A program made the position numbers and the translations under genes. Below, piece after piece: positions 1 to 19,005 of a stretch of DNA of 19,005 nucleotides. Every line of letters begins with the position of its first letter. Position 1 is the first letter of the stretch. Below the pieces are notes generated by a model that was not told the origin of the DNA, ran no database searches, and worked only from the letters and a program-made list of their open reading frames with translations. This stretch comes from a virus. Taxonomy: Duplodnaviria > Heunggongvirae > Uroviricota > Caudoviricetes. The DNA is taken from the IMG/VR virus record IMGVR_UViG_2703718854_000004. One strand, written 5' to 3'.

Positions 1-1074
1 TCATTTGTCGATTTCAATTTTGTCCCATTCCCGTCCACGGCTGTCCCTATACCGCGCCGCCATTGAATCTGATTTATGCCCGAGAAGACGTTGAGCAAAC
101 TTATCGCCAATCTGGTTCCGGTATAGCCTCGCTGACAGGCTACGCAGTTCATGGAATGTTGGCGGGTTTCCATCAAATGAGAGTCCAGATGCATTTCTCG
201 CCTTTGTAAAATACTTTGATACTGTTTTCGGGGAAAGCTGATCGTGATGCTTTGATGCGATTATAGTTTCACTGCTGCTGGCCTCCCTGCATTTCTGTAG
301 TGTATCAGCCAATGAGATATTGAGCGCGTCAATCGTTAGCGTTAGTGGAATGGCGAGTTTAGCCCCTGTTTTACTCTGTTCAATGTGAAGATGGTTGTCG
401 TTTATGTCTGACCATTTCATTCTGCACAAATCGCCGACTCTCTGCCCTGTAACGACGGCCAAATCCATCGCCAGCCTTAGCCAGATAGGGAGAGGTTCGG
501 CTGCATGGTAAATCTCGACATACTCATTAGCTGTCAGCCTTGAGCGCCTTACTTCTGACTTTGCTGTACGGGTTGCTGTTACCGGATTCGTTGCCACATG
601 CCCCTCGGCTATTGCTTCACGAAAAACGTCAACAAGGGTTGACCTGATTAATTTTGCGGAAGCTGCTTTACCTTCTGCTACGTAGGTGTTTAGCATTGCT
701 GCCACTTCTTTCGTTGATATGTCAGTGAGCGGTTTGTCCGGCAATTTTCTTCGGATTGCCCTGATTTTGCTGGCGTAGTCGAGTAGAGTTTTCGGCCTGA
801 TCCCCCTTTCGGTGAGGATTCTTTCATATCGGTCAAGCCACACATGAAGAGTGATTGCGTCACCGCCTTTAATTCTGTCTATCAGTGATTTGCGTCCGCT
901 GTCTGAGAGTAACTCAATATTGGCCTGTATTGCTTCAGTGATTGCTATCCTCCTGTCTCGGCCTAATCCAAACTCTTTACCCGTCCTTGGGTCCCTGTAG
1001 CAGTAATATCCATTGTTTCTTATATAAAGGTTAGGGGGTAAATCCCGGCGCTCATGACTTCGCCTTCTTCCCAT
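1..1074 (-). CDS. int: Tyrosine site-specific integrase, lambda Int type (357 aa); window begins at its stop codon
   Basis: ORF translation (MGRRRSHERRDLPPNLYIRNNGYYCYRDPRTGKEFGLG...) matches remembered lambda Int along its length; C-terminal catalytic region with HELRSL and RY motifs; start overlaps xis 3' end as in lambda. Confidence 0.95.
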   Translation of the reverse strand: MGRRRSHERRDLPPNLYIRNNGYYCYRDPRTGKEFGLGRDRRIAITEAIQANIELLSDSGRKSLIDRIKGGDAITLHVWLDRYERILTERGIRPKTLLDYASKIRAIRRKLPDKPLTDISTKEVAAMLNTYVAEGKAASAKLIRSTLVDVFREAIAEGHVATNPVTATRTAKSEVRRSRLTANEYVEIYHAAEPLPIWLRLAMDLAVVTGQRVGDLCRMKWSDINDNHLHIEQSKTGAKLAIPLTLTIDALNISLADTLQKCREASSSETIIASKHHDQLSPKTVSKYFTKARNASGLSFDGNPPTFHELRSLSARLYRNQIGDKFAQRLLGHKSDSMAARYRDSRGREWDKIEIDK

Positions 1075-7689: not shown

Positions 7690-7932
7690 CTAGGTAAGAG
7701 GAATCGATTTTCCCTTAATTTTCTGGCGTCCACTGCATGTTATGCCGCGTTCGCCAGGCTTGCTGTACCATGTGCGCTGATTCTTGCGCTCAATACGTTG
7801 CAGGTTGCTTTCAATCTGTTTGTGGTATTCAGCCAGCACTGTAAGGTCTATCGGATTTAGTGCGCTTTCTACTCGTGATTTCGGTTTGCGATTCAGCGAG
7901 AGAATAGGGCGGTTAACTGGTTTTGCGCTTAC
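7690..7932 (-). pseudogene. N: N antiterminator remnant: C-terminal ~80 codons only, no start codon, arginine-rich RNA-binding N-terminus missing
   Basis: Minus-strand translation VSAKPVNRPILSLNRKPKSRVESALNPIDLTVLAEYHKQIESNLQRIERKNQRTWYSKPGERGITCSGRQKIKGKSIPL matches lambda N residues ~28-106; in-frame TAG four codons upstream of the homology boundary. Confidence 0.8.
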
Positions 7933-13212: not shown

Positions 13213-14295
13213 TTAGAACTGGTAAACCATACCTACAGCAACGATATCATCGGTAGCAACGCCAGATGCTTTCGTGAAATCGCTCTTATCAATCAGGTTG
13301 ATTTTGTAGTCAACAAAAGTGGACATATTTTTGTTGAAGTAATAGGTTGCACCTACATCAACATATTCAACCAGGTCCTGATCACCCCAAACACCCAAGT
13401 CTTTTCCTTTAGAATGCAGGTAAGCAACGGATGGACGCAGGCCGAAGTCGAACTGATATTGTGCAACAGCTTCGAAGTTTTGTGCTTTGTTGGCAATATG
13501 GTTATTACCAAAAACAGTCATGTTCTGGGTTTCAGAATAGGTGGTGGCCAGATAGATGTTGTTCGCATCATATTTCAGACCAGCTGCCCATACTTCAGCA
13601 TTTTGACCAGAAGCATTCAGACCGTTGTTACCGTAGATAACCTGATTATTAGTGCGATCAGATTTAGCATAGGTTGCACCCACGCCGAATCCTTCATACT
13701 CATAAGTAGTTGAGAAACCGAAACCATCGCCATTAGCTTCAGTTACTTCATTTCGGTCATTTTTGCCCTGATACTGAGCTGCAAAGTTCAGGCCATCAAC
13801 CAGACCAAAGAAGTCGTTGTTACGATAAGTTGCAACACCTGTGGTGCGACCAGTCATGAATACATCTGTTTGGGTCCAGGTATCGCCACCGAATTCTGGC
13901 AGAACGTCGGTCCATGCACCGATGTCGTATGCTACACCGTAGTTACGGCCGTAATCGATGGAGCCGTAGTCACCGAATTTCAGGCCAGCGAAGGCAAGAC
14001 GGGTTTTATCTTTGGAGGAACCTTGAGATTCAGCGCGGTTGCCTTTGAATTCATATTCCCACTGACCGAAACCAGTCAGTTGATCGTTGATTTGGGTTTC
14101 ACCTTTGAAGCCAAGACGGGCATAAGTAGTATCACCATCATCTGCATCATTAGAGGAGAAGTAGTGCTTAGCATTAACTTTCCCGTACAGATCCAGCTTG
14201 TTACTGTCTTTATTATAAATTTCAGCTGCCTGAGCAGACATCGCCATCAGTACTGATGCAGCTACAGCAGAAATTGCCACTGTTAATTTTTTCAT
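13213..14295 (-). CDS. nmpC: Outer-membrane general porin, OmpC/OmpF superfamily, phage-borne NmpC/Lc type (360 aa precursor)
   Basis: Start MKKLTV... with signal peptide ending AQA; C-terminal VGMVYQF beta-barrel signature; ORF-track start at 14355 is an upstream extension; sits antisense between Q and holin as in DLP12/PA-2. Confidence 0.85.
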
Positions 14296-14723
14296 CGTGA
14301 GCCCTTTTTTTGAACTATTATTAAAAAATGATGTCACTGCGCGATAAATATTCATCTAATCAATGTGATTATTTCAAGATGTAAGTTTTGGTTTCTCGTT
14401 TGATTTGTGAAGTAGATCTCTATTTTTATCTGAACTTTTTTCTATCGAATCCTATTCATGGCTCTTGGCTGAATAAAAATAAATCTATTAGCCAATTTAT
14501 ATTAACGGCTGTTATTTATAAGTGCTCTATAATTTGAAGGTTCAATTTAAACCGGCTAAAAATAACACTGGAAATTATTTGTTGGTTATTTGTTGAGATT
14601 TGCTTATGTATTTGTAGTGGTGTTTTCAATACTCGGTAGCATTCTCGCAAATATCATTTAGTGGTTTACGTACGTAAAAAATTGGTTATGCTGTTAAGAG
14701 TGGTTACTTCGTCACACAGCTTA

Positions 14724-14757
14724 AACCCGCCGTCGAGCGGGTTTTTCCATTTTTTGA
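14724..14757 (+). terminator. Terminator-like hairpin upstream of the lysis cassette
   Basis: AAACCCGC-CGTCGA-GCGGGTTT followed by TTCCATTTTTT. Confidence 0.4.
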
Positions 14758-14867
14758 GTCTCGATATTAGCTGATAACCCAATACCTGAGTTATTCACTG
14801 ACTCCGAGTCTGTTACGTTTCGTAGTATTCCCTCAATTTACACCCGCTTTGTCTGCGAGGTGGGGTT

Positions 14868-15083
14868 ATGAAATCCATGGATAAGTTAACAACGGGTGTC
14901 GCCTATGGCACCTCAGCAGGTAGTGCCGGGTACTGGTTTTTACAGCTGCTAGATAAAGTCACGCCCTCACAGTGGGCGGCAATTGGAGTGCTGGGTAGCC
15001 TGGTATTTGGCCTGCTGACGTACCTGACAAACCTTTATTTCAAGATTAAAGAAGATAAGCGCAAGGCTGCGAGAGGTGGATAA
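14868..15083 (+). CDS. S: Class II holin, phage-21 S21 pinholin type (71 aa), dual-start motif MKSM
   Basis: RBS GAGGTGGGG; two TM segments; Met1 and Met4 starts; resembles remembered S21/EssD. Confidence 0.88.
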
Positions 15084-15580
15084 TGCCTCCATCATTACGA
15101 AAAGCTGTTGCTGCTGCTATTGGTGGCGGGGCTATTGCTATAGCATCTGTGTTAATCACTGGCCCAAGTGGTAACGATGGTCTGGAAGGTGTGAGACATA
15201 ATCCTTACAAAGACATAGTTGGTGTATGGACTGTATGTTACGGGCATACAGGAAAAGACATCATTCCCGGTAAAACGTATACCGAAGCAGAGTGCAAAGC
15301 CCTCCTGAATAAAGACCTTGCCACTGTCGCCAGACAAATTAACCCGTACATCAAAGTCGATATACCGGAAACAACGCGCGGCGCTCTTTACTCGTTCGTC
15401 TACAACGTGGGTGCTGGAAATTTCAGAACATCGACGCTTCTTCGCAAAATAAACCAGGGCGATATCAAAGGCGCATGTGATCAGCTACGTCGCTGGACAT
15501 ACGCTGGCGGTAAGCAATGGAAAGGCCTGATGACTCGCCGTGAGATTGAGCTTGAAATCTGTTTGTGGGGGCAGAAATGA
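15083..15580 (+). CDS. R: SAR endolysin, phage-21 R21-type lysozyme (165 aa)
   Basis: N-terminal Gly/Ala-rich signal-anchor-release segment [20 protein letters not shown]; catalytic triad context GLEGV...D...T; start overlaps holin stop. Confidence 0.9.
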
Positions 15581-16044
15581 GCAGAGTAACCGCGATTATC
15601 TCCGCTCTGGTTATCTGCATCATCGTCAGCCTGTCATGGGCAGTCAATTATTACCGTGATAACGCCATTACCTACAAAGCCCAGCGCGACAAAAATGTCA
15701 GAGAACTGAAGCTGGCGAACGCGGCAATTACTGACATGCAGATGCGTCAGCGTGATGTTGCTGCGCTCGATGCAAAATACACGAAGGAGTTAGCTGATGC
15801 GAAAGCTGAAAATGATGCTCTTCTGCGGAAGCTTGATAATGGTGGCAGGGTGCTCGTCAAAGGAAAATGCCCTGTGCCATCCTCAGCCGAAACCTCCAGC
15901 GCCTCCGGCATGGGCAATGATGCCACCGTCGAACTTTCTCCAGTTGCTGGACGAAACGTTCTCGATATCCGGGACGGAATTATCCGCGACCAAACAGCAC
16001 TGAGAACGCTTCAGGAATACATTAGGACGCAATGCCTTCGATGA
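15577..16044 (+). CDS. Rz: Rz inner-membrane spanin (155 aa)
   Basis: ATGA overlap with endolysin stop; N-terminal TM segment then coiled-coil periplasmic domain. Confidence 0.85.
15797..16003 (+). CDS. Rz1: Rz1 outer-membrane lipoprotein spanin, embedded in +1 frame within Rz (68 aa precursor)
   Basis: Lipobox LIMVAGC followed by a proline-rich mature region [11 protein letters not shown]; fully nested in Rz. Confidence 0.8.
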
Positions 16045-16386
16045 TAGCGATAATTTTACTCATCATCCTTCACATCTGGCTCTGTAGACAGGGTGGTGAT
16101 CACTTCTGGAGTAAATCCAGATTAAACATCTCATTGCTGATGCTTGATATTGAGCATCTGGCGCGCAGTAAGGGGCGGCGTTGAGATAAGAGCCAGTTCA
16201 TTACAAATACCAGGATTTAGCCTCGCATTCGCGGGGCTTTTTATATCTGAATTTCACAGCGCATCTCACGCGCATATTAACGAGAGCCTTTCAGTAAGCG
16301 AGCCTGAGAAATGCCGTTATAGGTGGCGACCTCTCTCGGGCGGCTTTTCTGTGAGACAGGCTCACTTTCTAAAAGGTAAAGACGCT

Positions 16387-16911
16387 ATGAATAATCATTC
16401 AGTTATTCCAGCCTTCGACTTCCGAGAAATGGTGCAAGCCAAAAACGGAGAGGTCGTTACCACATCCAGAAAAATTGCCAAGTACTTCGGCAAGCGACAC
16501 GGTGATGTTCTCAGGAAAATCGAGCAGGTTAAGGCTGATTGCTCGCGTGAGTTTAGCCAACGCAATTTTGCGTCGGCTGATTATATCGATGAGCAGGGCA
16601 AGGTTCGCCCGATGTACAGCCTGACGAAAGATGGCTGGATCATGGTTGTGATGGGGTTCACCGGGAAAGCTGCTGCGGCAATCAAGGAGAGCTATATCGC
16701 AGCATTCAACTGGATGGCAGAGCAACTGAGCCGCCGCATGGCAATTGGCGAAGAAATGCAGCACCGCTACGCCATCAAAGAAACACGCTCAAAGCTGAAA
16801 GGTACGATCGGCAGTCGGTTAATGAACGAACGGAAGAAAGAGAAGCGTGTCCTGGCTGTCGAGCATGAATACATCTTGCAGGTGACACAGCCTGAACTGC
16901 TGATTAATTGA
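16387..16911 (+). CDS. rha: Rha-family phage regulatory protein (about 174 aa)
   Basis: Sequence MNNHSVIPAFDFREMVQ...TSRKIAKYFGKRHGDVLRKIEQ... is typical of the Rha N-terminal domain; the 255-aa ORF-track version begins in apparently non-coding hairpin-rich sequence. Confidence 0.7.
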   Translation: MNNHSVIPAFDFREMVQAKNGEVVTTSRKIAKYFGKRHGDVLRKIEQVKADCSREFSQRNFASADYIDEQGKVRPMYSLTKDGWIMVVMGFTGKAAAAIKESYIAAFNWMAEQLSRRMAIGEEMQHRYAIKETRSKLKGTIGSRLMNERKKEKRVLAVEHEYILQVTQPELLIN

Positions 16912-17211
16912 AGATGTCATTACAAAGCCTATCTACGGGGGGGCTTGATAATGGCTTATACCCTGCACGGGATAACTTAACTGATATCCCTTTTAACGGA
17001 TAAAGGTATTCAAGCCTGACACATCATGCGCTGTATCGTCGCCGTATTCCCGCATTAACCATGACCGTAGCCCGACGGGGAATTCCTTCTGCGTGAGTGT
17101 GCGGGAATAATCAAAAACGATGCACACCGGGTTTTACTGTGCTGACAGACGCAGGGTTACCCTCATAGTCGCTTTTCCGGTGCGATGGTGGAAGAAACCG
17201 GACGTTATGGT

Positions 17212-17745
17212 TTAGTGTGGAAACATTTGTGATGTGCTCTGTATGTTTTCAGTAAAGAGTAATGAATTATCAAAGGTATAGTAATATCTTTTTTGTTCGT
17301 GGATATTTGTAACCCACCGAAAAACTCCTGCTTTAGCAAGATTTTCCCTGTATTGCTGAAATGTGATTTCTCTTGATTTCAACCTATCATAGGACGTTTC
17401 TATAAGATGTGTATTTCTTGAGAATTTAACATTTACAACCTTTTTAAGTCCTTTTATTAACACAGTGTTATCGTTTTCTAACACAATGTGAATATTATCT
17501 GTGGCTAGATAGTAAATATAATGTGAGACATTGTGACGTTTTAGTTCAGAATAAAATAATTCACAGTTTAAATCTTTTCGCACTTGATCGAATATTTCTT
17601 TAAAAATGGCAACCTGAGCCATTGGTAAAACCTTCCATGTGATACGAGGGCGCGTAGTTTGCATTATCGTTTTTATCGTTTCAATCTGGTCTGACCTCTT
17701 TGTGTTTTGTTGATGATTTATGTCAAATATTAGGAATGTTTTCAA
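17212..17745 (-). CDS. Hypothetical AT-rich protein (177 aa), at the position of the lambda right-end ORF lambdap78
   Basis: Long clean ORF with visibly low GC compared with its neighbours; no domain recognised; same size as the lambda right-end ORF. Confidence 0.65.
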
Positions 17746-17907
17746 TTAATAGTATTGGTTGCGTAACAAAGTGCGGTCCTGCTGGCATTCTGGAGGGAAA
17801 TACAACCGACAGATGTATGTAAGGCCAACGTGCTCAAATCTTCATACAGAAAGATTTGAAGTAATATTTTAACCGCTAGATGAAGAGCAAGCGCATGGAG
17901 CGACAAA

Positions 17908-18114
17908 ATGAATAAAGAACAATCTGCTGATGATCCCTCCGTGGATCTGATTCGTGTAAAAAATATGCTTAATAGCACCATTTCTATGAGTTACCCTGAT
18001 GTTGTAATTGCATGTATAGAACATAAGGTGTCTCTGGAAGCATTCAGGGCAATTGAGGCAGCGTTGGTGAAGCACGATAATAATATGAAGGATTATTCCC
18101 TGGTGGTTGACTGA
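17908..18114 (+). CDS. Hypothetical small protein (68 aa), divergent from the 177-aa gene (lambdap79 position)
   Basis: Clean [71 protein letters not shown]; function unknown. Confidence 0.55.
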
Positions 18115-18278
18115 TCACCATAACTGCTAATCATTCAAACTACTTAACCTGTGACAGAGCCAACACGCAGTCTGTCACTGTCAGGAAAGTGGTAAAACTG
18201 CAACTCAATTACTGCAATGCCCTCGTAATTAAGTGAATTTACAATATCGTCCTGTTCGGAGGGAAGAACGCGGGATGT

Positions 18279-18473
18279 TCATTCTTCATCACTTTTAATT
18301 GATGTATATGCTCTCTTTTCTGACGTTAGCCTCCGACGGCAGGCTTCAATGACCCAGGCTGAGAAATTCCCGGACCCTTTTTGATCAAGAGCGATGTTAA
18401 TTTGTTCAATCATTTGGTTAGGAAAGCGGATGTTGCGGGTTGTTGTTCTGCGGGTTCTGTTCTTCGTTGACAT
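18279..18473 (-). CDS. YlcI/YnfO-like (DUF3950-like) small basic protein (64 aa), cos-proximal
   Basis: Translation MSTKNRTRRTTTRNIRFPNQMIEQINIALDQKGSGNFSAWVIEACRRRL resembles remembered YlcI-family prophage proteins; possible ribbon-helix-helix fold. Confidence 0.55.
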   Translation of the reverse strand: MSTKNRTRRTTTRNIRFPNQMIEQINIALDQKGSGNFSAWVIEACRRRLTSEKRAYTSIKSDEE

Positions 18474-18639
18474 GAGGTTGCCCCGTATTCAGTGTCGCTG
18501 ATTTGTATTGTCTGAAGTTGTTTTTACGTTAAGTTGATGCATATCAATTAATACGATACCTGCGTCATAATTGATTATTTGACGTGGTTTGATGGCGTAG
18601 ATGCACGTTGTGACATGTAGATGATAATTATTATCATTT

Positions 18640-18861
18640 TGCGGGTCCTTTCCGGCGATCCGACAGGTTACGGGGCGGCGACCTCGCGGGTTTTCGCTAT
18701 TTATGAAAATTTTCCGGTTTAAGGCGTTTCCGTTCTTCTTCGTCATAACTTAATGTTTTTATTTAAAATACCCTCTGAAAAGAAAGGAAACGACAGGTGC
18801 TGAAAGCGAGCTTTTTGGCCTCTGTCGTTTCCTTTCTCTGTTTTTGTCCGTGGAATGAACA
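18640..18861 (+). other. cos site: cosQ/cosN/cosB; 12-nt cohesive end GGGCGGCGACCT at 18673-18684
   Basis: Sequence ...GATCCGACAGGTTACG|GGGCGGCGACCTCGCGGGTTTTCGCTATTTATGAAAATTTTCC... matches the remembered joined right and left ends of lambda. Confidence 0.88.
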
Positions 18862-19005
18862 ATGGAAGTCAACAAAAAGCAGCTGGCTGACATTTTCGGT
18901 GCGAGTATCCGTACCATTCAGAACTGGCAGGAACAGGGAATGCCCGTTCTGCGAGGCGGTGGCAAGGGTAATGAGGTGCTTTATGACTCTGCCGCCGTCA
19001 TAAAA
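18862..19005 (+). CDS. nu1: Terminase small subunit Nu1, 5' partial (first 48 codons; runs off window end)
   Basis: Hand translation MEVNKKQLADIFGASIRTIQNWQEQGMPVLRGGGKGNEVLYDSAAVIK matches remembered lambda Nu1; the ORF-track entry 18797-19003 is in a different frame. Confidence 0.9.
   Translation, partial: MEVNKKQLADIFGASIRTIQNWQEQGMPVLRGGGKGNEVLYDSAAVIK

Follow-up and report, generated by a model that had tools for sequence, protein, structure and literature searches.

A stretch of 19,005 nucleotides (nt) from a virus of the class Caudoviricetes (IMG/VR record IMGVR_UViG_2703718854_000004), hereafter referred to as the window, was analyzed with regard to a divergent gene pair at positions 17212-18114. 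A first reading of this DNA, made without database searches (hereafter, the original prediction), had described the pair, located between the lysis genes and cos, as the best candidate in the window for an uncharacterized accessory function. The pair was found to be lambdap78/lambdap79 of phage lambda, that is, ybcV/ybcW of the cryptic prophage DLP12 of Escherichia coli K-12, and is already catalogued; consequently, the accessory region is real, but the locus is not a new discovery. Very probably, this is where a lambda-type prophage has its nonessential right end, which carries two independent accessory cassettes and not one two-gene system. Both genes were frequently found without each other, and the junction between the cassettes was mapped to positions ~17701-17750, inside the spacer that separates the two genes.

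Identity and boundaries of ybcV and ybcW

The window represents a lambdoid prophage of E. coli, bounded on the left by int (1-1074, minus strand) and on the right by cos together with the beginning of the small terminase gene. The divergent open reading frames (ORFs) of 177 amino acids (aa; minus strand) and 68 aa (plus strand) were present between the lysis genes and cos, as had been described. The prophages of strains AL.H8 and 100181 matched the window at essentially 100% identity, and the RefSeq annotation of the matching genome (E. coli) gives the gene names ybcV, ybcW and ylcI. At ~95% identity, the segment 17027-18672 corresponded to the terminal 1.6 kb of the lambda genome (NC_001416, 46868-48502), where lambdap78 and lambdap79 (47042-47575, complementary strand, and 47738-47944, respectively) are the same genes with the same order and orientation beside cos. 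YbcW was identical to the lambda and DLP12 copies at all 68 positions, and YbcV was identical to the lambda protein at 129 of 136 positions, whereas the left neighbor of the pair differed, being bor in lambda and a Rha-family gene in the window. The ybcV-ybcW-ylcI arrangement of DLP12 was the same as that of the window and included identical PdhR and FNR boxes; the lysis cassette and the Q gene of the window were also of the DLP12 type (essD, rrrD, quuD and an nmpC-like porin gene), whereas DLP12 has borD at the position occupied by rha in the window.

The minus-strand ORF, as originally described (17212-17745, TTG start), is over-extended, and the conserved gene encodes 136 aa from the ATG at position 17622 (17212-17622, minus strand). 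The first 123 nt of the 177-aa ORF carried single-base, frame-shifting insertions or deletions (indels) in homologues, and the homology of Qin-type relatives ended at 17701, that is, inside the extension. No Shine-Dalgarno sequence preceded the TTG codon, whereas GGAAGG was located 8 nt upstream of the ATG. The annotations of RefSeq, made with the Prokaryotic Genome Annotation Pipeline (PGAP), and the CPT annotation of lambda give the 411-nt gene of 136 aa, while the lambda record carries the over-long 177-aa form of lambdap78. The ratio of nonsynonymous to synonymous substitution rates (dN/dS), calculated from the ATG at 17622, was 0.12-0.34, which indicates purifying selection, and an ORF of at least 136 codons occurred in 0.3% of 2000 dinucleotide-preserving shuffles of the segment 17212-18114. 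The N-terminal extension is spurious, and its DNA (17623-17745, minus strand) belongs to the 5' untranslated or regulatory sequence of ybcV. Since ybcV starts at 17622, the divergent spacer is 285 bp long (17623-17907) and not ~160 bp, as had been supposed.

The ybcV coding sequence had a GC content of 0.309, the spacer one of 0.393 and ybcW one of 0.396, in comparison with 0.461 for the whole window and 0.45-0.52 for the flanking genes. Thus, the low GC content attributed originally to both genes was clear for ybcV and only modest for ybcW. Just 3' of the ybcV stop codon (~17175-17205), a 6-bp hairpin (TCCGGT...ACCGGA) was observed, which has no U-tract on the ybcV strand and is not a canonical terminator; in Qin, its pairing is kept by a double change (TCCGGC...GCCGGA), as read by eye.

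The original prediction recognized no domain in the larger protein. It should be noted, however, that YbcV is a full-length member of the DUF1398/YdfO family (Pfam PF07166, E-value = 2.1e-46, a score of 157.3 bits, the gathering threshold being 22, and coverage of profile positions 1-119 of 119). It was 78% identical (106 of 136 positions) to YdfO of the Qin prophage, the structure of which was solved by nuclear magnetic resonance (NMR; PDB 2HH8), and had the internally duplicated helix-helix-three-strand unit of the YdfO fold; the search for relatives of this fold revealed no informative structural relative. The ynfO-ydfO genes of Qin occupy the same place, with the DUF1398 gene beside a DUF3950 gene and cos. 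An A-x-x-G-V-[FA]-[RK]-W motif and the invariant residues Y35, T41 and R112 were conserved in an alignment with relatives down to 24% identity. YbcV was basic (isoelectric point (pI) 8.95) and hydrophilic (grand average of hydropathy (GRAVY) -0.47), and the scan for a signal peptide and for hydrophobic or membrane segments with a 19-residue Kyte-Doolittle window revealed none (maximum mean 0.43). Among representative proteins, only a dozen or so genuine distant relatives of full length were recovered. The chromosomal DUF1398 paralogue ycgX adjoins bluR; an in-silico annotation study could not assign ycgX, and the distant paralogues (YcgX and the copies of Kluyvera, Klebsiella and Citrobacter, 35-51% identity) had no conserved neighbor from which a function could be borrowed.

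The ybcW gene (17908-18114, plus strand) lies on the strand of the late operon and encodes an acidic (pI 4.9), predicted helical protein of 68 aa. Its ATG start codon is preceded by GGAG at a distance of 7 nt. The protein matched PHROG 657, a group with no function assigned, over 68 of 68 positions (E-value = 7.5e-48) and had no match among Pfam families. An ORF of at least 68 codons was found in 40% of the above shuffles, so its length alone is unremarkable. Meanwhile, the 68-codon frame remained open without indels in phages mEp460 and PhiR63_1 (79-81% protein identity), while the overlapping antisense ORFs (79 and 68 aa) were broken; the ybcW ORF is credible because of this conservation of the frame and not because of its length. 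The variants of YbcW differed nearly exclusively in residues 1-20 (17908-17967), where the predicted local distance difference test (pLDDT) score was low, and residues 21-68 were almost invariant.

Independent assortment of the two cassettes

The ybcW cassette (17702-18310) was delimited by blastn break points and alignment. It comprised 609 bp in lambda, DLP12 and window-type prophages, and ~50 bp were found instead of it in Qin-type prophages, which lack ybcW; in Qin itself, the C-terminus of YnfO is different and longer. In the relatives without ybcW, homology to the window ended at 17701 and resumed at 18311, whereas those with ybcW only matched 17749/17790-18260, the shared core being ~17750-18260. 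The DUF1398 gene together with ylcI/ynfO, without ybcW, was found in Qin, phage ev099 and two further prophages (L035 and L040); the arrangement gnsB-ybcW-cos, without the DUF1398 gene, was found in phages mEp460 and PhiR63_1. All four combinations of presence and absence of ybcV and ybcW occurred, with sharp junctions at 17701, 17749, 18260 and 18311. Among 80 IMG/VR loci retrieved via ylcI, both genes were present in 41, neither in ~24 (ylcI adjoining bor) and ybcW only in 10, while in two loci rha adjoined ylcI. Of 5426 complete E. coli genomes, counted in aggregate, 3020 contained ybcV-like DNA and 1988 contained ybcW, while 1402 had the two genes as a contiguous pair. In the phage collection, 40-43 of 50,697 records encoded ybcV/ybcW, mostly lambda and its derivatives. 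Thus, ybcV and ybcW are not an obligate pair and assort independently, with a module junction inside the spacer. The suggestion that the slot adjacent to cos is a cargo site was supported by this mosaic structure, whereas the suggestion of a functional pair around a shared promoter was not.

Both the presence/absence polymorphism with sharp junctions and the deviant base composition, which are features of morons, were found here, and to that extent the original interpretation of the genes as morons holds. The lambda morons bor and lom, which are placed in late regions antisense or as autonomous units, resemble ybcV in their antisense orientation in the late operon, deviant composition, presence/absence polymorphism and dispensability. 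They differ from it in that their expression in lysogens is documented and in that their products are an outer-membrane lipoprotein and an outer-membrane protein, respectively, whereas YbcV is cytoplasmic.

It should be noted that lambda control DNA swamped the protein and GTDB searches for both proteins with thousands of noisy contigs of ~3.5 kb, leaving almost no evolutionary depth. Lambda contigs were found inside the "genomes" of Pseudomonas, Kitasatospora, Brevibacillus, Flavobacterium and others, one plant protein entry was likewise affected, and the record of "Campylobacter phage CJLB-4" was lambda-sized, with lambda-identical ybcV and ybcW. Because of this contamination, the apparent host range and the cluster counts of both proteins are inflated.

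In some strains, YnfO (DUF3950) and YdfO (DUF1398) of Qin-type loci (e.g., L006, 4757-5458) are naturally fused in frame; this fusion (P0107, 233 aa) stands for 761 member sequences, and, as compared by eye with Qin, a single change of TGA to TGG at the ynfO stop codon would join both ORFs. The Qin arrangement and this fusion gave rise to the idea that ylcI/ynfO and the DUF1398 gene form a ribbon-helix-helix (RHH)-like regulator or a toxin-antitoxin-like pair. This candidate was rejected, since ylcI occurred without the DUF1398 gene in ~36 of the 80 loci and the sequence searches of Pfam and PDB revealed no RHH family.

Prophage context and regulatory sites

According to PGAP, the gene order of the prophage was int ... 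quuD - porin (minus strand) - essD - rrrD - Rz - rha - ybcV (minus strand) - ybcW (plus strand) - ylcI (minus strand) - cos - nohD. The lysis genes encode the holin (14868-15083), the lysozyme (15083-15580) and Rz (15565-16044). The gene of the Rha-family regulator (16384-16911, plus strand; Pfam Phage_pRha, E-value = 2.2e-28, and PGAP) occupies the position of bor in lambda and of borD in DLP12; the homology with lambda resumed only at ~17027, so that the former bor promoter region (17027-17211) is kept without bor. The third small gene in the same slot, ylcI (18279-18473, minus strand), was absent from the original prediction; it encodes a basic DUF3950 protein of 64 aa (PF13132, E-value = 5.4e-20; NCBIfam YlcI_YnfO_N; PGAP), is the cos-proximal neighbor of the pair, and its last ~10 codons fall inside the ybcW cassette (break point 18311). 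The cohesive end of cos, GGGCGGCGACCT, is located at 18673-18684: the last base of the lambda record aligned with 18672, after which the sequence of the lambda left end follows.

Between the antiterminator gene quuD and the holin gene, an intact gene of an OmpC/NmpC-like porin of 380 aa was found (13213-14355, minus strand); nmpC has the same location in DLP12 but is disrupted there. The stretch upstream of it (14300-14600) had a GC content of 0.28, the lowest of the profile, which covered the right-hand part of the window (14000-19005). A segment of 1,744 bp (L004, 10933-12676), present in the near-identical prophage of AL.H8, was missing from the window, where the junction (7922-7932) shows an overlap of 11 bp. 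This segment comprises the 5' end of N, a gene occupying the rex position, the gene of a LexA-family cI repressor and most of cro. This prophage copy is therefore devoid of the immunity region and presumably has neither pL nor pR.

The description of the spacer as a promoter region proved to be an assumption, since the scan for the sigma-70 consensus revealed no promoter with at least 9 of 12 matches in 17623-17907 on either strand. A PdhR box, ATCTGGTCTGACCTCTT, was located at 17684-17700 as an exact match to the DLP12 site found by genomic SELEX (systematic evolution of ligands by exponential enrichment). The box is too degenerate to be detected by the PdhR consensus scan at up to three mismatches, and its relevance rests on its identity to the bound DLP12 site; a variant of it was kept upstream of ydfO in Qin. 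According to published data, a PdhR site is present in the ybcV-ybcW spacer, and in a pdhR mutant of K-12 the mRNA levels of ybcV and ybcW were 10-fold and 8.9-fold lower, respectively (PMC7660256). An FNR-type box, ATGATTTATGTCAA, with two mismatches to the consensus was found at 17713-17726, and the same sequence is listed as the target "ybcW" of FNR in chromatin immunoprecipitation on microarrays (ChIP-chip) (PMC1802558). In addition, a perfect FNR/CRP-type palindrome, TTGATgcatATCAA, was observed at 18534-18547, ~60 bp upstream of the ylcI start; near-identical sites of DLP12 and Qin, which differ from it in one spacer base (gcag instead of gcat), appear among the FNR ChIP-chip targets of the same source under the entries nohB and nohA/ydfO (PMC1802558).

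The published expression changes of these genes in K-12 are indirect and depend on PdhR, overexpression of MotB and microaerobiosis. In BL21(DE3), overexpression of MotB of phage T4, a treatment that affects H-NS-dependent repression, increased the reads attributed to ybcV/ybcW of DLP12 more than 1000-fold, with strong de-repression of ybcV alongside H-NS-silenced genes; the source of these reads is ambiguous, as the lambda DE3 prophage has near-identical copies of both genes. In K-12, the convergent genes ybcW and ylcI, the transcripts of which overlap, are listed as an "excludon".

In lambda, the late transcript, antiterminated by Q, passes through the right end into the head genes. Since this transcript crosses the region, ybcW is sense to it, whereas ybcV and ylcI are antisense.

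Possible functions and alternative explanations

Published screening by CRISPR interference (CRISPRi) classified lambdap78 as nonessential (efficiency of plating (EOP) 1.9). The lambdap79 gene was scored as essential by CRISPRi only, and the same study documents polarity of CRISPRi on downstream essential genes; elsewhere in the literature it is nonessential and dispensable for plaque formation. According to a 2026 preprint, infection with lambda-vir activates Vulcan, an NADase abortive-infection defense. In all seven lambda-vir escapers, lambdap79 had been lost through recombination with Qin; its co-expression with Vulcan was toxic, and it was reported as the Vulcan activator (bioRxiv 10.64898/2026.09.04.749371). 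The Qin break points mapped here (17702-18310) explain how lambda loses the Vulcan trigger through such recombination. The MG1655 host, which normally carries an identical ybcW in DLP12, tolerates Vulcan when uninfected, which suggests that the resident copy is nearly silent without late transcription. Other phage triggers of abortive infection are known, e.g., the large terminase subunit sensed by Avs2. Like these, lambdap79 is reported to activate a defense, and escapers delete it; however, it is a small dispensable accessory protein and not a conserved essential one, and its activation of Vulcan is known from co-expression. Since lambdap79 is dispensable, escape by deletion is cheap.

Proceeding from these data, ybcV may be regarded as a gene of a soluble, basic cytoplasmic protein, AT-rich and antisense to the Q-dependent late transcript. 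By analogy with the K-12 orthologue, its expression is kept low, probably by H-NS-type silencing, and may be raised by PdhR. Such a gene would be a normally silenced, conditionally expressed moron of the prophage state, the product of which, made in the lysogen, would act on host physiology. Meanwhile, ybcW shares its strand with the lysis and head genes and would therefore be expressed mainly at the late stage of lytic growth, through transcription continuing from the late promoter; its CRISPRi score, the triggering of Vulcan and the deletions in escapers fit with its production during lytic growth. Our best guess is that YbcW might bind a host factor as a small late protein of host takeover or counter-defense, and Vulcan might have evolved to sense it.

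The alternative in which ybcV and ybcW form one functional two-component system (defense, exclusion or toxin-antitoxin-like) with a shared bidirectional promoter is very improbable. The divergent arrangement across the 285-bp spacer with PdhR and FNR sites, the ~10-fold decrease of both mRNAs in the pdhR mutant and the contiguous pair in 1402 of 5426 genomes are consistent with it, but each gene is frequent without the other, and the break points of homology fall inside the spacer. Furthermore, the search of PADLOC-DB 2.0 revealed no significant match for either protein (best E-values of 0.013 for Csx23 and 0.017 for Mem_04, both short and partial), lambda without lambdap79 but with lambdap78 is viable with no toxicity reported, and lambdap79 triggers a defense rather than providing one. 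The defense or exclusion role proposed initially found no support, and the single experimental connection points in the opposite direction, with lambdap79 being sensed by Vulcan. That the larger gene encodes a structural protein of the virion (head or envelope) is hardly credible at all. Homology to a structural protein, which the original prediction named as contrary to its interpretation, exists only nominally, in the label "head protein" of RefSeq and PHROG 413; a further label of this kind in the databases, which include older lambda records, is "putative envelope protein". These labels are contradicted by the orientation of the gene, opposite to the lysis and head genes, by its dispensability in CRISPRi and by the soluble cytoplasmic character of the product, which has no hydrophobic segment and the close homologue of which, YdfO, is a soluble monomer by NMR. 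In addition, paralogues occur in cryptic prophages without virion genes and beside the chromosomal bluR, and many lambda-type prophages are entirely devoid of ybcV.

It is also very unlikely that the 68-aa ORF is not translated and that the segment acts as RNA or DNA (a leader of the late transcript to cos or an antisense partner of ylcI), the ORF being incidental. The frequency of such ORFs in shuffled sequences, the dN/dS values of ybcW, the lack of a Pfam match and the overlapping transcripts of the ybcW/ylcI excludon would agree with this explanation. Nevertheless, the frame with its good Shine-Dalgarno sequence is kept without indels in the variants of 79-81% identity, in which both antisense ORFs break, and the substitutions cluster in residues 1-20 beside a nearly invariant core. 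The RNA structure of the convergent ybcW-ylcI spacer was not unusual (z = -0.23), and the Rfam search revealed no credible match.

Several observations weigh against the preferred interpretation of two independent cassettes with the activities outlined above. The dN/dS of ybcW was 0.41-0.93 on small counts; this high overall value arises because the differences cluster in the N-terminal 20 residues. The model of YbcW, which predicts three helices, had low confidence (pLDDT 62) and gave no fold match. No sigma-70 consensus promoter or intrinsic terminator was found to flank ybcV or ybcW, so that the classical anatomy of a moron with its own promoter and terminator was not demonstrated. The timing of ybcV and ybcW expression in this prophage is inferred; moreover, as the immunity region is missing, normal induction and late transcription may be impossible in this copy, in which case Q-dependent late transcription may never occur and ybcW may be silent here. 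The claim that overproduction of YdfO leads to oxidative-stress resistance is second-hand and was not found in the main text of the cited paper. Finally, the Vulcan result comes from a single preprint, in which the protein was not separated from the RNA (bioRxiv 10.64898/2026.09.04.749371).

The combined proposal, according to which YbcW would be a late counter-defense or host-takeover factor with a helical core binding a host protein and with Vulcan as its guard, while YbcV would be a PdhR-linked factor of lysogenic conversion, is possible but rather doubtful. If it is true, the hypervariable N-terminal 20 residues of YbcW would reflect an arms race, and YbcV would link prophage carriage to the central-carbon or stress physiology of the host via the pyruvate-sensing PdhR. 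The outcomes of the present analysis are corrective: the larger gene encodes 136 aa and not 177, its product has the DUF1398/YdfO fold and is not a head or envelope protein, and the two genes are separate mobile cassettes and not a system. In lambda, the most studied temperate phage, ybcV and ybcW belong to the last genes still unassigned, and the contiguous pair occurs in approximately one in four complete E. coli genomes. To phage biologists, a true function for either protein would be moderately interesting.

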